Shown here piece after piece: positions 3,925 through 51,600 of a DNA stretch of 64,000 nucleotides (position 1 is its first letter; each line of letters opens with the position of its first letter). Origin of the DNA: Escherichia coli (GTDB lineage Bacteria; Pseudomonadota; Gammaproteobacteria; Enterobacterales; Enterobacteriaceae); NCBI RefSeq assembly GCF_036507355.1, contig NZ_AP027877.1. One strand, 5' to 3'. Position numbers and translations under genes: made by a program. Under the pieces are notes generated by a model. The model searched no databases. It saw only the letters and a program-made list of their open reading frames with translations, and was not told the DNA's origin.

Positions 3925-4860
3925 ATGGCACTGCCAATTCTGTTAGATTGCGACCCAGGTCATGATGACGCTATCGCAATAGTTCTCGCCCTCGCCTCAC
4001 CAGAGCTTGATGTCAAAGCAATTACGTCTTCCGCCGGAAACCAGACACCAGAAAAAACCTTACGCAATGTTCTGCGTATGCTGACCTTGCTTAATCGCAC
4101 CGATATTCCGGTAGCCGGCGGCGCAGTAAAACCGTTAATACGTGAGTTGATTATCGCGGACAATGTGCACGGCGAAAGCGGTCTCGACGGCCCGGCATTA
4201 CCGGAACCGGCGTTCGCACCGCAAAACTGTACGGCCGTAGAGCTAATGGCGAAAACGCTGCGTGAAAGTGCGGAACCTGTCACGATTGTGTCTACCGGAC
4301 CGCAAACTAACGTTGCCTTGCTGCTCAATAGCCATCCGGAACTGCATAGCAAAATTGCCCGTATCGTGATTATGGGTGGCGCTATGGGGCTGGGTAACTG
4401 GACGCCTGCGGCTGAATTTAATATTTACGTTGACCCGGAAGCGGCAGAAATTGTCTTCCAGTCAGGGATCCCGGTGGTGATGGCCGGTCTGGATGTTACT
4501 CACAAAGCACAAATCCACGTTGAAGACACTGAGCGTTTCCGCGCGATTGGCAACCCTGTTTCAACCATTGTTGCCGAACTGCTGGATTTCTTCCTCGAAT
4601 ATCATAAAGACGAAAAATGGGGCTTTGTCGGCGCACCGCTGCATGACCCATGCACCATCGCCTGGCTGTTGAAACCGGAGTTGTTTACCACTGTTGAGCG
4701 CTGGGTTGGCGTGGAAACACAAGGGAAATATACCCAGGGGATGACGGTTGTTGATTATTATTATCTGACTGGCAATAAACCGAATGCCACTGTAATGGTC
4801 GATGTTGATCGTCAGGGCTTTGTTGATTTACTGGCTGATCGTCTGAAATTTTACGCTTAA
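3925..4860 (+). CDS. rihA: pyrimidine-specific ribonucleoside hydrolase
   Basis: ORF 3892..4860; start refined to [16 protein letters not shown] (nucleoside hydrolase DxDxxxDD motif); 311 aa. Confidence 0.9.
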
Positions 4861-4943
4861 CACACGTCATTGATTAAGATCACCACGCGTTACCTGGGTG
4901 GTCTTAATCTGTTTATCTCTTTTTCTTTCAAGATATAAATGCA

Positions 4944-6614
4944 ATGGATAATGCAGAACTCGCCATTGGTATCGATCTCGGTACTACCAATAGTTTAATT
5001 GCCGTCTGGAAAGACGGTGCCGCGCAATTAATTCCAAATAAGTTCGGTGAATATTTAACACCATCCATAATTAGCATGGATGAAAATAATCATATTTTAG
5101 TCGGAAAACCGGCTGTATCACGGCGTACTTCGCATCCGGATAAAACGGCAGCGTTATTTAAACGTGCAATGGGCAGTAATACCAACTGGCGGTTAGGCAG
5201 CGACACATTTAACGCGCCAGAACTGTCCTCTTTGGTATTACGCTCATTAAAAGAAGATGCCGAAGAATTTCTGCAACGTCCGATTAAAGATGTGGTGATC
5301 TCTGTTCCGGCTTATTTCAGCGATGAACAACGCAAGCATACCCGTTTAGCAGCGGAGTTAGCCGGTTTAAATGCAGTTCGCCTGATTAATGAGCCAACGG
5401 CAGCTGCGATGGCGTATGGCCTACATACCCAACAAAATACCCGTTCGCTGGTGTTTGATCTCGGTGGCGGCACGTTTGACGTTACGGTGCTTGAGTACGC
5501 CACGCCGGTGATTGAAGTTCACGCCTCCGCTGGCGACAACTTCCTCGGTGGCGAAGATTTTACCCATATGCTGGTCGATGAGGTTTTAAAACGCGCGGAT
5601 GTCGCCAGGACCACGCTTAACGAGAGTGAACTGGCAGCCTTGTATGCCTGTGTGGAAGCGGCAAAATGTAGCAATCAATCGCTAATGCACATTCGCTGGC
5701 AGTACCAGGATGAAACGCGGGAATGCGAATTTTACGAGAACGAACTGGAAGATTTGTGGTTGCCGCTGCTCAATCGCTTGCGAGTGCCGATTGAACAGGC
5801 GTTGCGCGATGCGCGTCTGAAGCCGAGTCAAATCGACAGTCTGGTGCTGGTTGGCGGCGCGTCACAAATGCCGCTGGTGCAGCGAATCGCCGTGCGTCTG
5901 TTTGGCAAATTACCGTATCAAAGTTACGATCCGAGCACCATTGTCGCGCTGGGCGCAGCAATCCAGGCAGCCTGCCGCTTACGCAGTGAAGATATTGAAG
6001 AAGTGATCCTCACTGATATTTGCCCTTACTCGTTGGGCGTTGAGGTTAACCGTCAGGGCGTTTCCGGCATTTTCTCGCCGATTATTGAACGAAACACCAC
6101 TGTGCCCGTGTCGCGTGTAGAAACTTATTCAACCATGCACCCGGAACAGGATTCAATTACGGTTAACGTCTATCAGGGAGAAAACCACAAAGTTAAAAAC
6201 AACATTCTGGTGGAATCCTTCGATGTGCCGTTGAAGAAAACCGGGGCTTATCAGTCGATTGATATTCGCTTTAGTTATGATATCAACGGGTTGCTTGAAG
6301 TTGACGTGCTTCTGGAAGACGGCAGCGTTAAGTCCAGAGTGATTAACCACAGCCCGGTAACATTGAGCGCGCAGCAGATTGAAGAGAGTCGGACGCGGTT
6401 ATCCGCATTGAAAATTTATCCGCGCGATATGCTCATCAACCGCACCTTTAAGGCCAAACTGGAAGAGTTGTGGGCGCGGGCGCTGGGTGACGAGCGAGAA
6501 GAGATTGGCCGGGTGATCACCGATTTTGATTCGGCGTTGCAGTCAAACGATATGGCCCGCGTCGATGAGGTCAGGCGGCGGGCGAGCGATTATTTAGCCA
6601 TTGAGATCCCATAA
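4944..6614 (+). CDS. hscC: Hsp70-family chaperone HscC (Hsc62)
   Basis: 556 aa; Hsp70 motifs IDLGTTNS and DLGGGTFD; AT-rich 5' end. Confidence 0.92.
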   Translation: MDNAELAIGIDLGTTNSLIAVWKDGAAQLIPNKFGEYLTPSIISMDENNHILVGKPAVSRRTSHPDKTAALFKRAMGSNTNWRLGSDTFNAPELSSLVLRSLKEDAEEFLQRPIKDVVISVPAYFSDEQRKHTRLAAELAGLNAVRLINEPTAAAMAYGLHTQQNTRSLVFDLGGGTFDVTVLEYATPVIEVHASAGDNFLGGEDFTHMLVDEVLKRADVARTTLNESELAALYACVEAAKCSNQSLMHIRWQYQDETRECEFYENELEDLWLPLLNRLRVPIEQALRDARLKPSQIDSLVLVGGASQMPLVQRIAVRLFGKLPYQSYDPSTIVALGAAIQAACRLRSEDIEEVILTDICPYSLGVEVNRQGVSGIFSPIIERNTTVPVSRVETYSTMHPEQDSITVNVYQGENHKVKNNILVESFDVPLKKTGAYQSIDIRFSYDINGLLEVDVLLEDGSVKSRVINHSPVTLSAQQIEESRTRLSALKIYPRDMLINRTFKAKLEELWARALGDEREEIGRVITDFDSALQSNDMARVDEVRRRASDYLAIEIP

Positions 6615-6620
6615 ACACGG

Positions 6621-6660
6621 CTGCCGGATGCGGCGTAAACGCTGCATCTGGCATCGGCGC
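6621..6660. repeat. REP-like palindromic element between convergent hscC and djlC
   Basis: gccggatgcggcgtaaacgc...ctggcatcggcgc resembles the REP consensus core. Confidence 0.45.
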
Positions 6661-6673
6661 AAAAAACACATCG

Positions 6674-8125
6674 TCAACTAAACAACATCGCGATTTTGCC
6701 GAGAGCATAACCTATCACCAGCACCGTTAAGCTGATTTTGATAATGCTGGTAATGCTCTGTGGTTTTTCATCCTCATCATTTTTTTCTTCATGGTTTTCA
6801 GGTGTTGGCTCATCGACATCTTCATCCTCCGGCTCGAGTTTCACTTTCGTCAACAGCATCCGGGTGATAATGGCCTCTAATGGATGAGCATCTCCACCTT
6901 CCAGCCTTGTATTAAGACGGGCCAGCATCTCTTGTTTCGGAAACGCTTCAAGTACTACCTGTTCCGCTACCCGATACAAATCCAGTAACGGTGAATCTTG
7001 CTCTGTCTCGCTACCGACCCTCGATTTCCACCACGCCCATGCTTTGCGTTTGAAGAATAACGACTCAATAAACGATTGACCTAACGGCGATAGTTTTCCG
7101 CTATGTAAAATTTCCGCCCATAACAGACGCGTCCGGGCGCTCTCACCAGGAACATATTTCAACGGTTTACCTTGCGCATCTACCATGCTCCGTGCTTCGA
7201 TAACCATCACTAATAACGCGAAATAATCCGGGCAATGTTGTGCGCTCCACTGCAACAACAAATTATCGGCTTGTGTAGATGGGTAACTTCCCCAGTACGC
7301 GCAGAGATCGGCAAGCAGGCTTTCCCCCTCGCCGCAGTACAAACGTTGTGCACACTGGTAATACCGGGCATCTTCGCTTTCTGGTTCTTCCGTTTGCCAC
7401 TGTTGGGCAACAGGAATGAGTTCCGCCATACCTGTTTGCACCGAGCTGTACCAGCGCAACAGTTTGCGATGCAACTTCGCATCATCAGGAATTAACCACG
7501 GACCTGCCAACGCCAAAAACGCAGTGACATAGTCAGGATGGTAACGACAGCAACGTTCCAGCGCGAAGTAATACTCAACAGTCTGGTTCTGCAACGCAAT
7601 GGGATATTCCAGAAGGCTAAGGAAATCGAAACAATCACCAGCCTGAATGGCCTCAAGAAAAGCCTCCCTTTCTTCCTCATCCATTCCTACGCTGTCATTA
7701 AACGAATGCCAGTTCAAACGCTCTGCCAGCAAAGAAGCACAATTTAATGAAAGATATCGCGCTTCTATAGCGATTGCACACAGCGGCCAGCGTAATTGAT
7801 CGACATCCTCCATGTTCCAGGTATTTAATTGCTGAATAAATTTCTGCCAGGCGGAAGGCTGAAAACGATCACTTTCTGAATCCAGTAATGTCCTGAATGC
7901 ACGAAGTATTTCATGTTCAGCGGCGGCATCTTTTTCTTCATCATCTGCTTCCTCGACAGGATTTACCGCCAGTCGCAGCGCCTCTTCATAGGCCTGGCGT
8001 AATGCTTTAAACCCCTGCGGATCGGTTTCGGGATGACATAACGGTAAGCGAGCAAAATAAGCCTGGCGGATAATGTCTATTTGCGTCGTGCTTTCAATTT
8101 CGAGGATTTGCCAACATGTTTTCAT
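6674..8125 (-). CDS. djlC: J-domain co-chaperone of HscC with C-terminal membrane anchor
   Basis: 483 aa; N-terminal J-like region with [10 protein letters not shown]-terminal hydrophobic tail [18 protein letters not shown]; start overlaps ybeU stop by 4 bp. Confidence 0.88.
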
Positions 8126-8829
8126 AGGTCGCTCACATCCTTAAGCGTTACCGGGCATTCAGGCTGGACAGTTAATGGTTGCCAGGGAAGCGTGGCATAG
8201 AAACGATCGCTTCCCGCTGCTAGCTCTTCGAACATATGACTCCTGGCGCTATCGTATTTGTACAGGGTTAGCGCCTCGCGTAGCGAAGTGTTGTCTTCGC
8301 ACTGAGAAGATTGCCAGTAGAGACGCCCTAGTGAATAGGCAGAAAAATAGTGCATCCAGCTGTGATAGTAATGGTGAGCTCGTACATAGACGCGCGATTG
8401 CAGCCATAAACTCTCGTCTTCCGTCAGCCACTTGTTGAGCACACCAACCCGTGATAAAAAACCCATCCGCACATAATCCCAGGCTTTGATTCCCCCTTCC
8501 CCACAACACATAGCGGTTTGGGCAACGAACTGGGTATAAATCAACCCTCTCTCCGAGCCACCAGCAATTAATGCTTTCCACTCTTCAGGGGAAGAGCGAT
8601 GCCATGTCAGATATAAGCCAGCTAAATCATTGGCATGACCATCATCAGTCATCTGATAAATAGTCTGAATTAAATCATCACGATTATTTATTCCCCAGGA
8701 TGATGAGAGATCGAATTCTTTTATCCCGGTATACATTTTTGGCGAGTCATGCGCGGGTTTGCAACCCTGATTAAGTATTTCCATGGGCGCAGAAAGCGCA
8801 AAAAGAAGATATTGTTCTTCCTTATTCAT
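8122..8829 (-). CDS. ybeU: DUF1266-like protein, function unknown
   Basis: 235 aa; paralogue of ybeR with shared motif [20 protein letters not shown]. Confidence 0.85.
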
Positions 8830-8930
8830 TTGTTAATAATCCCTTAAGTGCATTAACTGACTACTTTTTTATTATTGATGAGTATAAACTTGACGCTTTC
8901 AAAATAAAAAGAAAATCGAAACATTCACAC

Positions 8931-9485
8931 ATGAATAAAAAATTAATGTATATATTCGCAATTTTTATAGTTGCAGCAATTACCTGTATTAGCCAACCCA
9001 AGAAAACGACGTTGCGTGATAAAGCCATGGTGAATTATGCCTTTGATTATTTAAGCTCACCGGGCAGTCTTCCATTCACCACGGCAGCCACGGAGCTTTC
9101 CGCGATTCATGGTCACTCAACGTCGCAATATCGCCTTGGAGAATTTTATCTTCATGGTAGCGACGGTAAACCACTGGATTATACACAGGCGAGATACTGG
9201 TATGAGCAATCAGCGGAACAGGAAAATCCACGCGCGCAAAGTAAACTGGGGTGGATCTACCTCAAAGGTCTGGGGGTCAAACCCGACACCCGTAAAGCAA
9301 TTCTCTGGTATAAGGAAGCAGCTGAACAAGGGTATGCTCATGCTCAATATACTTTAGGTTTGATCTACAGAAATGGCTCAGGTATTAATGTTAACCATTA
9401 TGAATCTCAAAAATGGTTAAAACTGGCCGCCAAACAACATTACAAAAATGCGGAAAGATTACTTGCCGGGCTTCCCGCACATTAA
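8931..9485 (+). CDS. ybeT: Sel1-repeat (TPR-like) protein with N-terminal hydrophobic segment
   Basis: 184 aa; N-terminal [21 protein letters not shown]; Sel1-like repeats (AQ..LG..Y..G.GV); AT-rich coding sequence. Confidence 0.85.
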
Positions 9486-9494
9486 CGTCGACTG

Positions 9495-10922
9495 TCACCC
9501 GAACAGATGGAGTATTTTCCCTATCAAACCAGCAAAGATAAAAATATAGAAAATAATTTTAATGATGCCCAGACAGCCTGGCCCACCATCGTCAACGGGC
9601 ATTGGCTGCGGTTGCGGCTCCGGTTCAACAGTTTGCTTCTCGGTAAAATTCGCCGCCTGAATTAATAATCGACGAATAATTAATGCTTCCAGTGGACAAC
9701 GATTTTCTGCATCAAGACGGCTTACGATCGGCATTAATGATTCTTCTGTTGGTTGGCTGGCCTGCACTAATTGTTTGGCAACTAAATATAATGGCCATAA
9801 GGGATGTTCTGTATCACGCGTGAGTGAGATCCGCGGCTTACGTCCTTTGTGCAAAACCATCTCGACCAGTGAACGCCCCAGAGCAGAGAGTTTTTCATCG
9901 CTGAGTATTTCGTATAAATGAAAACGCGTACGGGCGCTGTCGCCGGGGATATAAAGTAGCGGTTTTCCCTGATCGTTAACCAGTTCACGAGCTTCAATCA
10001 TCATCACCACTAACGGGTAATAATCGACCCGATGCTGACGGCACCATTGCAATATTAAAGCATCCGCCTGGGTGGAGGGATACTCGCGCCAGTAGTCACA
10101 AAGTTCTGCCAGCAAGCTTTCGCCTTCTCCACAATAGACGCGTTGTGCGTATTCATAATAACGCGCATCTTCATTATCAGGTTCAGCTTCCCGCCACGAC
10201 CGGGCGTAATCCAGGAGTTCGGGAATTCCCAGGCGACCTGCGCTATACCAGCGGAGTAAATTTCTGTGCAGTTTTGCATCATCGGGGATAATCACTGCGC
10301 GATGTTGCGCTAAATACAATGTCAGCCATTCTGGATGCGATGACCAAATCCGAGCGAACATTTGGTAAAAATCGATGGTGTCATTTTGCACGGCAACGGG
10401 CAGATGCAGGATGGTCTGGAAGTTAAAAACATTCCCCTTCGCAATGGCATATAAAAAGGATTCCAGTTCTTCTTCGTCTATTTCCCCGACGTTTTCTTCC
10501 TGCAACCACCGCAATCTTTCTGCTAATAACACCACGCACTCGAAGGATAAATGGGCAGTGTTCATGGCTATTGTGCACAGCGACCAGCGTAATTCATCAA
10601 TCTCTTCCATCGAGCAATAATTTAATTGCTGAATGAATCGCTGCCAGGCGGAGGGCAGAAAACGTTCGCTATCAGAGGCAAGTAACGCACGAAAGGCGAG
10701 CAGAATTTCATGTTCTGCTACCTCATATTCTTCTGGTTGCCAAACAGATTTAGCAGGCGACTGCGCAATCCGTAGCGCCTCCTCATACGCCTGACGAAGT
10801 TGTTTAAAACCCTGCGGATCGGTTTCTGGATGAAAGGACGGTAACAGCGCCAGATAAGCGCGGCGGATAATATCGACGTCAGTCGTTTCCTCTATGTTGA
10901 GGATCTTCCAGCAATTTTTCAT
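9495..10922 (-). CDS. djlB: J-domain protein with C-terminal membrane anchor, paralogue of djlC
   Basis: 475 aa; N-terminus [23 protein letters not shown]...[10 protein letters not shown]-terminal hydrophobic tail; start overlaps ybeR stop by 4 bp. Confidence 0.88.
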
Positions 10923-11626
10923 AGGTCGCTCATATCCTTAAGCGTTTCCGGGCATGTGGGGTAGTCAGCCAGTGGTTGCCAGGGTAAGGTCGCGTAATAT
11001 GCATCGTCACTGGCAAATAATTGATAAAACATATCATTGCCGGAATCGTCGTATTCTTTACGCGCTAAGAATTCACGTAATAAAGGCAGATTATCATCTT
11101 CGGGAGACTGCCAATATTGCCGACCAAAGGTATAACCGGCAAAGTATTGCCGCCAGTTACTATAATAACGTAGAGCCCGTAGATGAATACGCGACTGGAT
11201 CCATAGACTTTCTTCTTCACTCAACCAGTTATTAAGTACGCCCATTCGACTTAAAAAACCCATCCGGACATAATCCCATGCTTTAATTCCTCCCTCACCA
11301 CAGCATTCGGCTGTGCTGGCGACAAATTGCGCATAAGCCTGACCTTGCTCATTTAATTCAGCAAGATAGTCACGCCATTCACATGGAGAATAACGAAACC
11401 AGCGGTGATAAAACCCTGCCAACCGAGCGGCATGACCGTTATCGATCATTCGGTGAATTGTGCGCAGCAGGTCATCACGGTCATCAATTCCCCAGGAGGA
11501 AGAAAGGTCAAAAAAGCATGTACCTAAATACATTTTGGGGGATGAATGCGAAGGTAAACAGCATTCATTGCGTATTTCCATCGGAGTGGAAAGTGCAAAC
11601 AATATTTTTTGCGACTCCATGTCCAT
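10919..11626 (-). CDS. ybeR: DUF1266-like protein, function unknown, paralogue of ybeU
   Basis: 235 aa; same [20 protein letters not shown] motif as ybeU. Confidence 0.85.
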
Positions 11627-11783
11627 ATAATTTATCCTTAAACATTCATTTAATGAATGTAAACTACATTAGGAGGCTCATTTATTTATACTTTTCTGAC
11701 ACAACATAATACGCATAAAATAAGACTTACGCAAAAACGGAACACATAAAAATATAATATGTTTTATCTGCAACCATAAGGAA

Positions 11784-12767
11784 ATGATAATGATTTTTAC
11801 GTCAAGTTGCTGCGATAATTTGTCAATAGATGAGATTATCGAACGTGCTGAACAAGGCGATAGTGAGGCTCAATATATTGTTGGGTTTTATTATAATCGC
11901 GATAGCGCAATTGACTCTCCGGACGACGAAAAGGCCTTTTACTGGCTGAAGCTGGCCGCTGAGCAAGGTCATTGTGAAGCACAGTATTCCTTAGGGCAAA
12001 AGTATACCGAGGATAAAAGCCGTCATAAAGATAATGAGCAAGCCATCTTCTGGCTGAAAAAAGCTGCCCTACAAGGCCATACTTTCGCTTCCAACGCCCT
12101 TGGCTGGATACTGGATCGTGGAGAAGACCCCAACTATAAAGAAGCGGTTGCCTGGTATCAGATAGCCGCGGAGAGCGGAATGTCTTATGCGCAAAATAAT
12201 CTTGGGTGGATGTACAGAAATGGCAACGGAGTCGCACAAGACTATACGCTGGCATTTTTCTGGTACAAACAAGCTGCATTACAAGGCCATAGTGACGCGC
12301 AAAACAATCTGGCCGATCTTTATGAAGACGGAAAAGGCGTTGCTCAAAACGAGACACTCGCCGCATTCTGGTATTTGAAAAGCGCACAGCAGGGTAATCG
12401 GCATGCTCAGTTTCAAATTGCATGGGATTATAACGCTGGCGAAGGGGTGGACCAGGACTATAAGCAAGCGATGTACTGGTATCTGAAGGCTGCCGCTCAG
12501 GGGAGCGTCGGCGCTTACGTCAACATCGGTTATATGTATAAACACGGACAAGGCGTTGAGAAAGATTATCAGGCTGCCTTTGAATGGTTTACGAAAGCCG
12601 CTGAATGCAATGACGCCACTGCCTGGTATAACCTGGCCATTATGTATCACTACGGAGAAGGAAGACCTGTCGATCTCCGACAGGCTCTCGACCTGTATCG
12701 TAAAGTTCAGTCATCCGGAACCAGAGATGTCAGTCAGGAAATTCGTGAGACTGAAGATTTACTGTAG
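11784..12767 (+). CDS. ybeQ: Sel1-repeat (TPR-like) protein
   Basis: 327 aa; at least seven Sel1-like repeats (AQ..LG..Y..G.GV..D...A..W); Cys-rich N-terminus. Confidence 0.85.
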   Translation: MIMIFTSSCCDNLSIDEIIERAEQGDSEAQYIVGFYYNRDSAIDSPDDEKAFYWLKLAAEQGHCEAQYSLGQKYTEDKSRHKDNEQAIFWLKKAALQGHTFASNALGWILDRGEDPNYKEAVAWYQIAAESGMSYAQNNLGWMYRNGNGVAQDYTLAFFWYKQAALQGHSDAQNNLADLYEDGKGVAQNETLAAFWYLKSAQQGNRHAQFQIAWDYNAGEGVDQDYKQAMYWYLKAAAQGSVGAYVNIGYMYKHGQGVEKDYQAAFEWFTKAAECNDATAWYNLAIMYHYGEGRPVDLRQALDLYRKVQSSGTRDVSQEIRETEDLL

Positions 12768-12771
12768 AGAT

Positions 12772-12812
12772 AAAAACAAGGGCCGGGGAATTTCATTCGG
12801 CCCATATTCTCT
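12772..12812. terminator. hairpin between convergent ybeQ and ybeL
   Basis: gggccggggaatttcattcggccc stem-loop flanked by A/T runs. Confidence 0.4.
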
Positions 12813-12836
12813 TTATTGCTGTGCGAAATCAGACTA

Positions 12837-13319
12837 TTACGGCTCAAACGGGCGTCTCTGGAACTGGTCATGACCACATTTCGGGCATAGCGTCAGCACT
12901 TCCGGTGTGTAGATCGGGAGATGGAAGTGACATTTCTCGCAGACCAGATTTCCCAGCCCGACCACTTCTCCGCTGTGATAAACCCCATGATGATTGAGGT
13001 CCTGGAAAACTTCGCGCCATTCAAGCTGCGTTTTATCGGTGATGTCTGCCAGCTCCTGCCACAAGCTTTCTTTAATCACCCGCATAAAGACGCTGTCAGA
13101 TTCTTCTTTCAGGCTCTCTTCATAGCTCATGGCGAACTCTTCCAGGTCACGTCTGACAGCTCGCGTCAGCTCATCGACCTCGGTTCGCGTTAACTCCCCT
13201 GTTTTTATTACGCGCTCGCGCGCCTGTTCCACCAGTGCGTCGATATCACGTTCGCCATTGCGCAGGCGTTCGCTCAGTGACGCGACCAGTTCACGGTAAT
13301 ATTGAGCAACCTTGTTCAT
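12837..13319 (-). CDS. ybeL: DUF1451 zinc-ribbon protein
   Basis: 160 aa; C-terminal CxxC...CxxC (CEKCHF...CPKCGH). Confidence 0.85.
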   Translation of the reverse strand: MNKVAQYYRELVASLSERLRNGERDIDALVEQARERVIKTGELTRTEVDELTRAVRRDLEEFAMSYEESLKEESDSVFMRVIKESLWQELADITDKTQLEWREVFQDLNHHGVYHSGEVVGLGNLVCEKCHFHLPIYTPEVLTLCPKCGHDQFQRRPFEP

Positions 13320-13554
13320 CGTTTCATCTCCCGGGTCGTTAACTGACTATAATAATAGACGTTCTTTGTTCCTTGCTTTGCTAATACGCCCACAAACTCT
13401 GTAAATTAATGTATGAATAATCCGGGCATCATTTCAACGTCGAGTGCGCGAAAGGCTGTTTTGACGCGGACGTTTGGGCTATGCTATGCGGATCTGAAAA
13501 ACCACCTCTAACGCTACTTTTGTAGCCGTAATGAAAACAGGACCACTGGCTGCC

Positions 13555-16137
13555 ATGCAAGAGCAATACCGCCCGGAAGAGATAGAATCCAAAGTACAGC
13601 TTCATTGGGATGAGAAGCGCACATTTGAAGTAACCGAAGACGAGAGCAAAGAGAAGTATTACTGCCTGTCTATGCTTCCCTATCCTTCTGGTCGACTACA
13701 CATGGGCCACGTACGTAACTACACCATCGGTGACGTGATCGCCCGCTACCAGCGTATGCTGGGCAAAAACGTCCTGCAGCCGATCGGCTGGGACGCCTTT
13801 GGTCTGCCTGCGGAAGGCGCGGCGGTGAAAAACAACACCGCACCGGCACCGTGGACGTACGACAACATCGCGTATATGAAAAACCAGCTCAAAATGCTGG
13901 GCTTTGGTTATGACTGGAGCCGCGAGCTGGCAACCTGTACGCCGGAATACTACCGTTGGGAACAGAAATTCTTCACCGAGCTGTATAAAAAAGGCCTGGT
14001 ATATAAAAAGACTTCTGCGGTCAACTGGTGCCCGAACGACCAGACCGTACTAGCGAACGAACAAGTTATCGACGGCTGCTGCTGGCGCTGCGATACCAAA
14101 GTTGAACGTAAAGAGATCCCGCAGTGGTTTATCAAAATCACCGCTTACGCTGACGAGCTGCTCAACGATCTGGATAAACTGGATCACTGGCCAGACACCG
14201 TTAAAACCATGCAGCGTAACTGGATCGGTCGTTCCGAAGGCGTGGAGATCACCTTCAACGTTAACGACTATGACAACACGCTGACCGTTTACACTACCCG
14301 CCCGGACACCTTTATGGGTTGTACCTACCTGGCGGTAGCTGCGGGTCATCCGCTGGCGCAGAAAGCGGCGGAAAATAATCCTGAACTGGCGGCCTTTATT
14401 GACGAATGCCGTAACACCAAAGTTGCCGAAGCTGAAATGGCGACGATGGAGAAAAAAGGCGTCGATACTGGCTTTAAAGCGGTTCACCCATTAACGGGCG
14501 AAGAAATTCCCGTTTGGGCAGCAAACTTCGTATTGATGGAGTACGGCACGGGCGCAGTTATGGCGGTTCCGGGGCACGACCAGCGCGACTACGAGTTTGC
14601 CTCTAAATACGGCCTGAACATCAAACCGGTTATCCTGGCAGCTGACGGCTCTGAGCCAGATCTTTCTCAGCAAGCCCTGACTGAAAAAGGCGTGCTGTTC
14701 AACTCTGGCGAGTTCAACGGTCTTGACCATGAAGCGGCCTTCAACGCCATCGCCGATAAACTGACTGCGATGGGCGTTGGCGAGCGTAAAGTGAACTACC
14801 GCCTGCGCGACTGGGGTGTTTCTCGTCAGCGTTACTGGGGCGCGCCGATTCCGATGGTGACGCTGGAAGACGGTACCGTAATGCCGACCCCGGACGACCA
14901 GCTGCCGGTGATCCTGCCGGAAGATGTGGTGATGGACGGCATTACCAGCCCGATTAAAGCAGATCCGGAGTGGGCAAAAACTACCGTTAACGGTATGCCA
15001 GCGCTGCGTGAAACCGACACTTTCGACACCTTTATGGAGTCCTCCTGGTACTATGCGCGCTACACTTGCCCAGAGTACAAAGAAGGTATGCTGGATTCCG
15101 AAGCGGCTAACTACTGGCTGCCGGTGGATATCTACATTGGTGGTATTGAACACGCCATTATGCACCTGCTCTACTTCCGCTTCTTCCACAAACTGATGCG
15201 TGATGCAGGCATGGTGAACTCTGACGAACCAGCGAAACAGTTGCTGTGTCAGGGTATGGTGCTGGCAGATGCCTTCTACTATGTTGGCGAAAACGGCGAA
15301 CGTAACTGGGTTTCCCCGGTTGATGCTATCGTTGAACGTGACGAGAAAGGCCGTATCGTGAAAGCGAAAGATGCGGCAGGCCATGAACTGGTTTATACCG
15401 GCATGAGCAAAATGTCCAAGTCGAAGAACAACGGTATCGACCCGCAGGTGATGGTTGAACGTTACGGCGCGGACACCGTTCGTCTGTTTATGATGTTTGC
15501 TTCTCCGGCTGATATGACTCTCGAATGGCAGGAATCCGGCGTGGAAGGGGCTAACCGCTTCCTGAAACGTGTCTGGAAACTGGTTTACGAGCACACAGCA
15601 AAAGGTGATGTTGCGGCACTGAACGTTGATGCGCTGACTGAAGATCAGAAAGCGCTGCGTCGCGATGTGCATAAAACGATCGCTAAAGTGACCGATGATA
15701 TCGGCCGTCGTCAGACCTTCAACACCGCAATTGCGGCGATTATGGAGCTGATGAACAAACTGGCGAAAGCACCGACCGATGGCGAGCAGGATCGCGCTCT
15801 GATGCAGGAAGCACTGCTGGCCGTTGTCCGTATGCTTAACCCGTTCACCCCGCACATTTGCTTCACGCTGTGGCAGGAACTGAAAGGCGAAGGCGATATC
15901 GACAACGCGCCGTGGCCGGTTGCTGACGAAAAAGCGATGGTGGAAGACTCCACGCTGGTCGTGGTGCAGGTTAACGGTAAAGTCCGTGCCAAAATCACCG
16001 TTCCGGTGGACGCAACGGAAGAACAGGTTCGCGAACGTGCTGGCCAGGAACATCTGGTAGCAAAATATCTTGATGGCGTTACTGTACGTAAAGTGATTTA
16101 CGTACCAGGTAAACTCCTCAATCTGGTCGTTGGCTAA
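13555..16137 (+). CDS. leuS: leucyl-tRNA synthetase
   Basis: ORF 13531..16137; start refined to [11 protein letters not shown]; class I HMGH and KMSKS motifs; 860 aa. Confidence 0.95.
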
Positions 16138-50697: not shown

Positions 50698-51600
50698 ATG
50701 ACCAATCTCTACGACTTGAAAAAGTTCGACTTAAATCTTCTTGTCATATTTGAGTGTATTTACCAGCATTTAAGCATTAGCAAAGCTGCTGAATCACTAT
50801 ATATCACCCCATCAGCCGTGAGCCAGTCGTTACAACGCTTACGTGCGCAATTTAATGACCCTTTATTCATTCGCTCAGGAAAAGGTATCGCGCCGACGAC
50901 AACAGGGTTAAATCTGCATCACCATCTTGAGAAAAATCTCAGAGGCCTTGAACAAACAATTAATATAGTCAATAAGTCCGAACTAAAGAAAAACTTTATT
51001 ATTCACGGCCCTCAGCTCATTTCTTGCTCTAATAATAGTATGCTGATCCGCTGCCTACGGCAAGATTCCTCTGTCGAGATTGAGTGCCATGATATCCTCA
51101 TGTCAGCAGAGAATGCTGAAGAACTGTTGGTTCACCGCAAAGCCGATCTGGTGATCACCCAAATGCCAGTGATCAGCCGTTCCGTCATTTGCATGCCATT
51201 GCATACGATTCGCAATACTCTAATTTGTAGTAATAGGCATCCACGAATTACTGACAATAGCACTTATGAACAAATTATGGCAGAAGAGTTCACCCAATTA
51301 ATATCTAAATCAGCAGGGGTTGATGATATTCAAATGGAAATAGACGAGAGATTTATGAATCGCAAAATTTCATTTCGTGGTTCCTCTTTGCTGACAATCA
51401 TTAATAGCATTGCAGTTACAGATTTACTGGGAATAGTCCCCTATGAACTTTATAACTCCCACCGTGACTTTCTTAATTTAAAAGAGATAAAACTAGAACA
51501 TCCGTTACCTTCAATAAAGCTTTACATTTCCTATAATAAATCTTCTTTAAACAATCTGGTGTTCTCCCGATTTATTGACCGTCTAAATGAGTGTTTTTGA
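50698..51600 (+). CDS. ybdO: LysR-family transcriptional regulator
   Basis: 300 aa; N-terminal HTH; AT-rich gene and upstream region. Confidence 0.85.
   Translation: MTNLYDLKKFDLNLLVIFECIYQHLSISKAAESLYITPSAVSQSLQRLRAQFNDPLFIRSGKGIAPTTTGLNLHHHLEKNLRGLEQTINIVNKSELKKNFIIHGPQLISCSNNSMLIRCLRQDSSVEIECHDILMSAENAEELLVHRKADLVITQMPVISRSVICMPLHTIRNTLICSNRHPRITDNSTYEQIMAEEFTQLISKSAGVDDIQMEIDERFMNRKISFRGSSLLTIINSIAVTDLLGIVPYELYNSHRDFLNLKEIKLEHPLPSIKLYISYNKSSLNNLVFSRFIDRLNECF

Follow-up and report, generated by a model that had tools for sequence, protein, structure and literature searches.

Sel1-repeat proteins YbeT and YbeQ as candidate accessories of two DUF1266-J-protein-HscC units in Escherichia coli

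Why should a gene for a Sel1-repeat protein stand back to back with each of two J-protein operons in Escherichia coli, and what would the two repeat proteins do there? We addressed this question in a stretch of 64,000 nucleotides of contig NZ_AP027877.1 (RefSeq assembly GCF_036507355.1), here called the window, in which ybeT opens the interval 8931-12767 and ybeQ closes it. The RefSeq order is rihA, then hscC, djlC, ybeU, ybeT, djlB, ybeR and ybeQ, then ybeL, leuS, lptE and holA; the list of open reading frames (ORFs) accordingly places djlB and ybeR inside the interval together with the two Sel1 genes. A sequence-only reading had proposed that YbeT and YbeQ form a membrane or periplasmic and a cytoplasmic scaffold paired with the two J-protein units, and that the module is of foreign origin. 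The best explanation as a whole, to which we give a probability of roughly one half, is that they are accessories giving each DUF1266-J-protein-HscC unit particular clients or partners.

The cluster consists of two tandem units, each an operon of a DUF1266 gene followed by the gene of a tail-anchored J-protein, with a Sel1 gene divergent from it across an AT-rich spacer. In unit A, ybeU (8122-8829, minus strand; DUF1266, Pfam E = 7.8e-45) is the first gene of the operon and overlaps djlC (6674-8125, minus strand) by 4 bp, and ybeT (8931-9485, plus strand; 184 aa) lies across a divergent spacer of 101 bp with 26.7% GC (8830-8930). In unit B, ybeR (10919-11626, minus strand; DUF1266, Pfam E = 1.6e-47) leads djlB (9495-10922, minus strand), again with a 4-bp overlap, and ybeQ (11790-12767, plus strand; 325 aa) lies across the divergent spacer 11627-11789, of which 11627-11783 (157 bp) has 26.1% GC. 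A single hscC (4944-6614, plus strand; Pfam HSP70 E = 2.6e-116), the specialised Hsp70 of the cluster, converges on djlC, an arrangement with the J-protein gene that all related loci having hscC repeat. The names hscC and djlB are those of RefSeq, which lists DjlC as a co-chaperone. DjlB and DjlC have weak N-terminal J-domains by Pfam (residues 4-47 in DjlC) and C-terminal hydrophobic 19-residue segments starting at residues 450 and 464, respectively. Both J-domains read HPE in place of the canonical HPD (CHPETDPQG and FHPETDPQG); HPE has been reported as tolerated only in DjlB and DjlC (PMC13254874), which matches what is seen here.

The two units are paralogous in their chaperone genes, with 60% identity between YbeU and YbeR and 53% between DjlC and DjlB, and to judge from sequence these genes were duplicated as one unit. 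YbeT and YbeQ are about 37% identical and align in many repeat registers, which is the level found with unrelated Sel1 proteins. Nor did we detect homology between the spacers of units A and B, whose alignment score of 18 compares with a mean of 18.5 after shuffling. The two Sel1 genes would thus be either independent recruits or copies that have diverged beyond recognition.

What kind of proteins are they? The claim that both are built of Sel1-like units held, with Pfam PF08238 matching three stretches of YbeT (E = 1e-30, 105.5 bits) and eight of YbeQ (E = 6e-67, 220.1 bits) against a cut-off of 30.7 bits. The AlphaFold2 model of YbeQ (predicted local distance difference test, pLDDT, 94.7) is an all-helical solenoid of 18 helices, in which a floppy leader of 12 residues and a cap helix precede eight helix pairs, and one more helix closes the C-terminus. 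That of YbeT (pLDDT 85.3; predicted template-modelling score, pTM, 0.75) begins with a low-confidence helix at residues 3-20. Residues 21-27 form a disordered linker and residues 28-59 a hairpin of helices at lower confidence; the three Sel1 helix pairs (63-168) are modelled with confidence and end in a short cap. Both models consist of paired helices throughout, and Foldseek or phmmer matches them to solved Sel1-like repeat (SLR) proteins, namely Legionella LceB (8sxq) and LpnE (6deh), proteins of Oxalobacter formigenes (6ok3, 6orc), c5321/EsiB of uropathogenic E. coli (4bwr) and Helicobacter HcpC (1ouv), as well as to SEL1L. By phmmer, YbeQ reaches E = 2e-72 to 6ok3 and 4e-70 to 4bwr; the YbeT model reaches a Foldseek probability of 1.0 with a template-modelling score of about 0.65 on the query. 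The SLR proteins share with YbeT and YbeQ the alpha/alpha solenoid, which is used as a protein-binding scaffold, but they are stand-alone and mostly secreted or host-directed, and none of their genes neighbours an Hsp70/J-protein unit. A further difference is the disulfide present in each repeat of the Hcp proteins, whereas in YbeT cysteine is confined to the hydrophobic segment. The best NCBIfam matches of both proteins are to MerG, AlgK, MotX and ExoR, which are envelope-located repeat scaffolds, but the scores fall far under the family cut-offs (for MerG, 51.9 and 102.5 bits vs 350) and indicate repeat-level similarity only. Since YbeQ matches these families as well as YbeT does, they carry no information on localisation.

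Localisation therefore has to be read from the N-termini, and for YbeQ this depends on where the protein begins. The longest ORF (11784-12767, plus strand) encodes 327 aa beginning MIMIFTSSCCDNLS, and RefSeq starts two codons later, for 325 aa beginning MIFTSS. An AGGA lies 7 nt before ATG 11790 vs 1 nt before ATG 11784, and this spacing makes the RefSeq start the likely one. As the sequence-only reading had it, YbeQ lacks a hydrophobic N-terminal segment (mean Kyte-Doolittle hydropathy, KD, of 1.09 in its best 19-residue window), but its 'Cys-rich' start comes down to two adjacent cysteines, only one of which is invariant across Escherichia, Salmonella and Citrobacter. The missing segment, a pI of 4.75, four cysteines in all and the helical solenoid of the model together make a soluble cytoplasmic YbeQ well supported.

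The hydrophobic N-terminus described for YbeT is real. It spans residues 5-21 (8943-8993, plus strand), a run of 17 residues without charged or strongly polar side chains and with a mean KD of 2.54, and the run is kept in five orthologues down to 71% identity (others being at 91%, 88% and 82%) despite single residue changes. Its best 19-residue window has a KD of 2.0 and a Hessa sum of +2.2; the comparable windows of the tail anchors are those of DjlC (1.99, +1.4) and DjlB (2.39, -0.7), the latter being somewhat more hydrophobic. The segment has the length and hydrophobicity for a membrane span, equalling the anchor of PBP2 and exceeding the run of the DacA signal peptide. This conserved segment supports the prediction that YbeT is a membrane or exported protein. 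The label 'conserved outer membrane protein' that an older annotation gave to ybeT, as quoted in PMC5797941, is likewise predicted and not measured.

We then asked on which side of the membrane the repeats would lie, and compared the YbeT segment with known exported or anchored proteins of the window by run length, lipobox and net charge of the next 15 residues. DacA, with a cleaved signal peptide, has a run of 15 residues followed by a net charge of -1; the lipoproteins RlpA (lipobox L-A-A-C) and LptE (T-A-G-C) have -2 and +1; and PBP2, a signal anchor, has a run of 17 followed by 0. YbeT, a protein of pI 9.4, has a run of 17 followed by +3, the highest value of all N-terminal signals and anchors in the window; the next-highest, +2, occurs in multi-pass membrane proteins only. 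Under the positive-inside rule basic residues tend to stay on the cytoplasmic side; those just past a signal hinder export, and a lysine-bearing N-terminal tail is hard to translocate. The two flanks of the YbeT segment pull in opposite directions under these rules. Two lysines or arginines precede the segment in Escherichia (MNKK) and four lie in the 15 residues after it, as against three before and three after, with a net charge of +1 after, in the orthologue on an enterobacterial metagenome-run contig (L008). With basic residues before and after the segment alike, sequence does not set the orientation. The proposed localisation contrast thus stands as to a cytoplasmic YbeQ and a membrane or exported YbeT, while the periplasmic side of YbeT is not decided by sequence.

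One arrangement would have the N-terminus of YbeT outside and its Sel1 domain in the cytoplasm, so that both Sel1 proteins work on the cytoplasmic side, YbeQ free and YbeT tethered beside tail-anchored DjlC. The excess of basic residues after the segment in all Escherichia orthologues (four against two, net +3), unmatched in the window, points this way. It would also put the solenoid in the compartment of the J-domain, DUF1266 and HscC, and HscC prefers positively charged peptides (PMC8215388). Telling against it are the two lysines of MNKK directly before the segment, which disfavour translocation of the tail, and the more even charges of the L008 orthologue. The closest repeat relatives outside Escherichia (P0056, P0057) also have the order zinc-ribbon, transmembrane segment, linker and Sel1, for which an external Sel1 domain is predicted. 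We regard a cytoplasmic Sel1 domain as unlikely, though the charges give it a sizeable minority share. A periplasmic Sel1 domain, summed over anchored, cleaved and lipoprotein forms, is somewhat favoured on the sequence.

Among those periplasmic forms, could YbeT be released from its segment, as a lipoprotein with Cys19 lipidated (cleavage A-I-T|C) or as a soluble protein cut by signal peptidase I after TCIS21? The n-region MNKK is short, positive and like that of a Sec signal, and together with the position of the invariant Cys19 it fits the geometry of a lipoprotein signal; the Escherichia orthologues also have small residues at -3 and -1 (C-I-S before Q22), and the old outer-membrane label would agree. 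Yet A-I-T-C19 departs from the lipobox [LVI][ASTVI][GAS]-C, since all five orthologues have Thr at -1; the corresponding residues in the window's two lipoproteins are AGC and AAC. In the L008 orthologue an F at -1 does away with the TCIS|Q site, leaving no small -3/-1 cleavage site common to all orthologues compared. A hydrophobic region of 17 residues is long against the roughly 7-15 expected of a cleaved Sec signal, and the early 'mature' region, expected to be neutral or acidic, is strongly basic. We therefore consider release in either form quite improbable, and an uncleaved N-terminal anchor more likely than a cleaved signal peptide. The annotated start bears on all of this: no recognisable Shine-Dalgarno sequence precedes ATG 8931, and a second in-frame ATG lies at codon 6 (8931-8948). 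Initiation there would drop both N-terminal lysines and change the predicted topology.

How old is the association of Sel1 genes with the chaperone units? Related loci were found with DUF1266 homologues as anchors, and every locus was scanned with seven proteins of the window. The core, a DUF1266 gene leading to a J-protein gene on which hscC converges, occurs in about 20 Pseudomonas species, four Pectobacterium, Klebsiella spallanzanii, Salmonella, Citrobacter and Escherichia. It has no Sel1 gene at all in the approximately 20 Pseudomonas loci, the 4 Pectobacterium loci or K. spallanzanii, and the ybeU-djlC units of Salmonella and Citrobacter have no Sel1 partner. Sel1 is therefore not required for the DUF1266-J-protein-HscC machine, and by this comparison of sequences the Sel1 genes are a late, lineage-specific add-on that did not belong to the ancestral machine. 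The J-protein of Pseudomonas and Pectobacterium is itself about 900 aa long and ends in a multi-pass DUF805 membrane domain, not a single tail anchor (for example L022, 10693-13383, and L030, 10705-13434), and its middle of about 300 residues has no Pfam match. A fusion of Sel1 and J-protein in these long forms was considered and dropped, since Pfam finds only DUF805 and hhalign against the YbeQ alignment gives a probability of 0.04. Nor do the Pseudomonas, Pectobacterium and Klebsiella loci share a further neighbour, the adjoining genes being unrelated (PAS-GGDEF-EAL, LysR, RlmJ, TPS/ShlB). The K. spallanzanii locus, with one unit on the ybeL side, has a two-partner secretion (TPS) pair, a TPS-domain protein and a ShlB-type transporter, directly beside hscC (L012, 14020-17532).

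The two Sel1 genes have different histories within this frame. In Salmonella and Citrobacter the locus adjoins ybeL as in E. coli and includes a ybeQ orthologue divergent to ybeR, whose product has 8 repeats, 50-60% identity and no hydrophobic N-terminus; ybeT is absent, and djlB is followed by ybeU after 11 bp (Salmonella) or 72 bp (Citrobacter). We found ybeT only in Escherichia species and on the L008 contig, whose flanks are about 85% identical to E. coli. There a gene for a YbeT of 71% identity with the same anchor stands divergent to a lone ybeU-djlC-hscC unit that has other genes around it, and the non-synonymous divergence (dN) from the window is 0.194 for ybeT and 0.188 for ybeU. Neighbour-joining trees place the duplication into U and R units before the split of Escherichia, Salmonella, Citrobacter and Klebsiella; in the trees of all three core proteins, the L008 unit groups as the sister of the U unit of Escherichia. 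By this sequence evidence ybeT has travelled with its unit as far back as the lineage can be traced, and it alone among the cluster genes is narrowly distributed. The ratio of non-synonymous to synonymous divergence (dN/dS) is 0.09-0.12 for ybeT and 0.10-0.13 for ybeQ, within the 0.03-0.15 of all cluster genes; together with their conservation, this marks both Sel1 genes as real and constrained.

Homology searches with the Sel1 proteins themselves were of little help. An exhaustive HMMER search with YbeT returned 200,434 matches at E <= 0.001, the best 150 of which were giant generic Sel1 proteins without information on orthologues or localisation; among these 150 none covered residues 1-50, save a few alignments starting at residues 16-45. 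A word-indexed search with YbeQ was swamped by unrelated Sel1 proteins, and its Salmonella and Citrobacter orthologues came from neighbourhood look-ups. In Escherichia sp. MOD1-EC7003, extra ORFs of 93 and 344 aa resembling DjlB/DjlC lie a few kb outside ybeQ (L009, 3648-5003), which may be the remnant of a third J-protein gene.

Is the module foreign, as the AT-richness of its Sel1 genes had suggested? We computed GC content and GC content at third codon positions (GC3) for the 58 long ORFs of the window, with z-scores against the 51 ORFs outside the cluster (mean GC3 0.566, sd 0.061). With a GC of 0.429-0.431 (with or without the stop codon) and a GC3 of 0.386, ybeT is the lowest of the 58 in GC3 (z = -2.95 when scaled by the spread among genes, and -5.0 as a binomial z). 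It is followed by ybeR (0.413, z -2.5) and by ybeQ, djlB, djlC and ybeU (0.465-0.470, z about -1.6), ybeQ itself having GC 0.470, GC3 0.466, z -1.66 and a binomial z of -3.6. hscC stands at 0.536 (z -0.5), and the flanking ybeL, leuS, lptE and holA at 0.55-0.61. Composition is thus atypical when compared with the flanking genes, with ybeT the extreme case and ybeQ below the flanks, but this is not specific to the Sel1 genes: ybeQ is no more AT-rich than djlB, djlC or ybeU. Because six of the seven genes are low (z from -1.6 to -2.95) and the two divergent spacers, at 26-27% GC, are lowest, AT-richness is a property of the cluster. The GC3 of the module also lies below that of its flanks in Salmonella and Citrobacter (Salmonella ybeQ 0.485 vs leuS 0.68) and is higher there than in E. 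coli. The only other gene of the window as AT-rich as ybeT is a 300-aa ORF at 50698-51600 (plus strand; GC 0.388, GC3 0.397).

The cluster also behaves as silenced DNA. Both ybeT and ybeU-djlC have been flagged as members of the H-NS regulon, and on overproduction of SlyA ybeT was the most induced transcript, at 4.1-fold, with ybeU-djlC at 2.8-fold (PMC5797941). The ybeQ/ybeR spacer is listed as an H-NS site and as a site of RNA polymerase found by systematic evolution of ligands by exponential enrichment (PMC3946193), and a DUF1266 gene was among the most derepressed in an hns mutant of enteroaggregative E. coli 042 (PMC7582179). Both spacers thus count as H-NS targets in the published work. 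A consensus scan found no promoter in either spacer, where sites were fewer than in shuffled sequence.

Presence and absence vary within the species. The window is chromosomal sequence of E. coli, and of 5426 complete genomes of the species 5367 are matched by the 8-kb query 4900-12900, for the most part at 95-99% identity; 3691 have at least 80% of this 8-kb cluster, 4256 have ybeT and 3852 a full-length ybeQ. In roughly 20-30% of the complete genomes the cluster is absent or has lost a part. Sequence type 131 is without djlB-ybeR and the 5' portion of ybeQ (L002, 7596-8061), and another lineage has an IS1-linked deletion from hscC through the 5' end of ybeT (L003, 5248-6454). A 168-aa, N-terminally short YbeT variant (P0004; 444 sequences; L039/L040) was considered as an alternative isoform and rejected as a contig-end truncation; it probably reflects IS1-linked loss of unit A. 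In empty-site genomes such as ETEC6333, only a 44-bp palindrome like a repetitive extragenic palindrome (REP; GCCGGATG...CATCCGGC) lies between rihA and ybeL, without module remnant (L004, 7958-8001).

Low GC3 in six of seven genes, silencing by H-NS and clean absence from some genomes are what a foreign island recently acquired by E. coli would show. Relatives of the module can moreover be plasmid-borne: a long-form module occurs on plasmids of 130-165 kb in Erwinia persicina, with no hscC listed. On one of these, p_Cp2 (L041, 6974-10337), the DUF1266 gene is followed by a J-protein in four annotated pieces, the last of them DUF805. Matches of the cluster to E. coli 'plasmids' were set aside as evidence of mobility, being mostly records of up to 4.9 Mb that we read as chromosomes filed as plasmids. 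A recent arrival is nonetheless very unlikely. The same ybeL-side locus is occupied in Salmonella, Citrobacter and K. spallanzanii and the duplication is older than these genera, so the cluster is an old resident and not a recent import; the higher GC3 of the module in Salmonella and Citrobacter, though below their flanks, also speaks against recent entry. No integrase, tRNA or flanking repeat was seen at the cluster borders. Of the marks of a genomic island, then, atypical composition and presence/absence polymorphism were found, and restricted distribution and mobility signatures were not. What survives of the proposed foreign origin is a foreign-like composition, H-NS silencing and polymorphism in an old, dispensable resident, normally silenced and under purifying selection.

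What would the Sel1 proteins do for the units beside them? The E. coli HscC-DjlB/DjlC chaperone system was reportedly described by Kluck and colleagues in 2002. ybeT and ybeQ are interleaved with exactly its genes, but the published components are HscC and the J-proteins only. DjlC is a tail-anchored inner-membrane protein whose membrane insertion has been shown, with DjlB predicted to be likewise, and the HscC ATPase is stimulated only by DjlC; loss of hscC, or of djlB and djlC together, makes cells sensitive to cadmium, and during normal growth the levels of the proteins are too low to detect (PMC8215388). The main text of that review is without the terms Sel1 or tetratricopeptide, and a full-text search for DUF1266 does not retrieve it. 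As the J-proteins are anchored in the inner membrane, one membrane-bound and one soluble partner would fit the geometry.

The explanation that we favour runs as follows. The conserved DUF1266-J-protein-HscC machine would act at the cytoplasmic face of the inner membrane, with the two Sel1 genes as lineage-specific accessories added to it. As interaction scaffolds, their products would bring or hold particular clients or partners for the adjacent unit. YbeQ, a soluble, acidic solenoid of eight repeats, would work in the cytoplasm with YbeR-DjlB, and YbeT, a small, basic solenoid of three repeats held at or exported across the inner membrane, would work there with YbeU-DjlC. Four points suggest the pairing, namely the like position of a Sel1 gene in the two units, its long inheritance alongside them, induction together with the unit and what SLR proteins generally do. 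By position ybeT belongs to ybeU-djlC and ybeQ to ybeR-djlB, and this divergent layout is kept for ybeQ in three genera and for ybeT even in the relocated single unit of L008.

Several observations weigh against this explanation. The cores without Sel1 genes, and the Salmonella and Citrobacter ybeU-djlC units without a partner, show that the machine can do without them, and since the neighbourhood is not conserved wherever the HscC system occurs, YbeT and YbeQ are not demonstrable members of it. Their mutual identity, no closer than that of unrelated Sel1 proteins, means that they are not a duplicated pair. The net charge of +3 after the YbeT segment disfavours efficient export, and a YbeT solenoid in the periplasm could not touch the cytoplasmic J-domain or DUF1266, leaving only helix-helix contact within the membrane. 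Our literature searches found no interaction, localisation, phenotype or function data for YbeT or YbeQ, and ybeT, flagged in a transposon screen with phage Arnold, behaved like wild type as a clean deletion (10.1101/2025.12.01.691526). The proposed pairing with the J-protein units consequently retains synteny and the co-induction of ybeT with ybeU-djlC in its favour, but remains circumstantial.

The simplest alternative is that the Sel1 genes are unrelated passengers in AT-rich, H-NS-silenced DNA beside the chaperone units, without a functional link. Sel1 proteins are very common and promiscuous, as the 200,434 matches attest, and a core that is Sel1-free in most taxa sampled, the absence of ybeT from Salmonella and Citrobacter, the lack of paralogy between YbeT and YbeQ and the non-homologous spacers would all follow. 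Passengers would hardly be expected, however, to stand divergent from the DUF1266 gene in both units, to keep their place since before the Escherichia-Salmonella split (ybeQ), to accompany ybeU-djlC-hscC with equal divergence in a relocated unit and be co-induced with ybeU-djlC (ybeT; PMC5797941), or to be both under purifying selection. On balance we think this alternative improbable.

A bolder form of the accessory explanation draws on eukaryotic systems. Co-chaperones such as DNAJC7/Tpr2 and DNAJC3/p58IPK combine tetratricopeptide repeats (TPR) with a J-domain, and SEL1L/Hrd3 is an adaptor of endoplasmic-reticulum-associated degradation; they resemble the present cluster in placing a helical-repeat scaffold with Hsp70 recruitment at a membrane, and SEL1L is a relative of YbeQ and YbeT in sequence and fold (phmmer, Foldseek). 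Here, however, repeat protein and J-protein are separate polypeptides, the long Pseudomonas J-protein being without Sel1 too, and so both comparisons are analogies only. By this analogy YbeT and YbeQ might be the adaptors that select clients for a two-sided membrane chaperone machine, as bacterial equivalents of the SEL1L/Hrd3 type, and would do so with Hsp70 across the membrane. A periplasmic YbeT solenoid would report on or hold an envelope client while its anchor contacted the tail anchor of DjlC, leading to recruitment of HscC in the cytoplasm, and YbeQ would do the equivalent job for cytoplasmic clients of YbeR-DjlB. We offer this as a long shot.

The surroundings of the Sel1 genes added little else. 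A consensus scan marks a terminator-like hairpin 3' of ybeQ (12780-12803, plus strand), and an Rfam scan of 4500-13600 found no RNA family. Six of the seven cluster proteins had no match to the defence-system models of PADLOC 2.0; YbeQ had one marginal, repeat-like match (E = 5.6e-4), which satisfied no defence-system model.

What, then, does the locus tell us? Gene names, repeat content and control by H-NS were already on record, as were the genes themselves, and YbeT and YbeQ are ordinary SLR proteins. Taken as it stands, the description restates features of annotated y-genes and holds no surprise for the specialist. Modestly new are the reading as two units, the late addition of the Sel1 genes as accessories to a core that Pseudomonas also has, the narrow range of ybeT and the conflicting charge signals around the YbeT anchor. 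The comparative result narrows the question, with a core of DUF1266, J-protein and HscC common with Pseudomonas and Sel1 genes that would be later, lineage-specific additions. Of the three E. coli Hsp70s, HscC is to our knowledge the one least understood, and we know of no client for it. If YbeT and YbeQ are specificity factors of the two J-protein units, they would offer a direct handle on the purpose of a silent, membrane-bound chaperone system, and would explain why Escherichia keeps two units.

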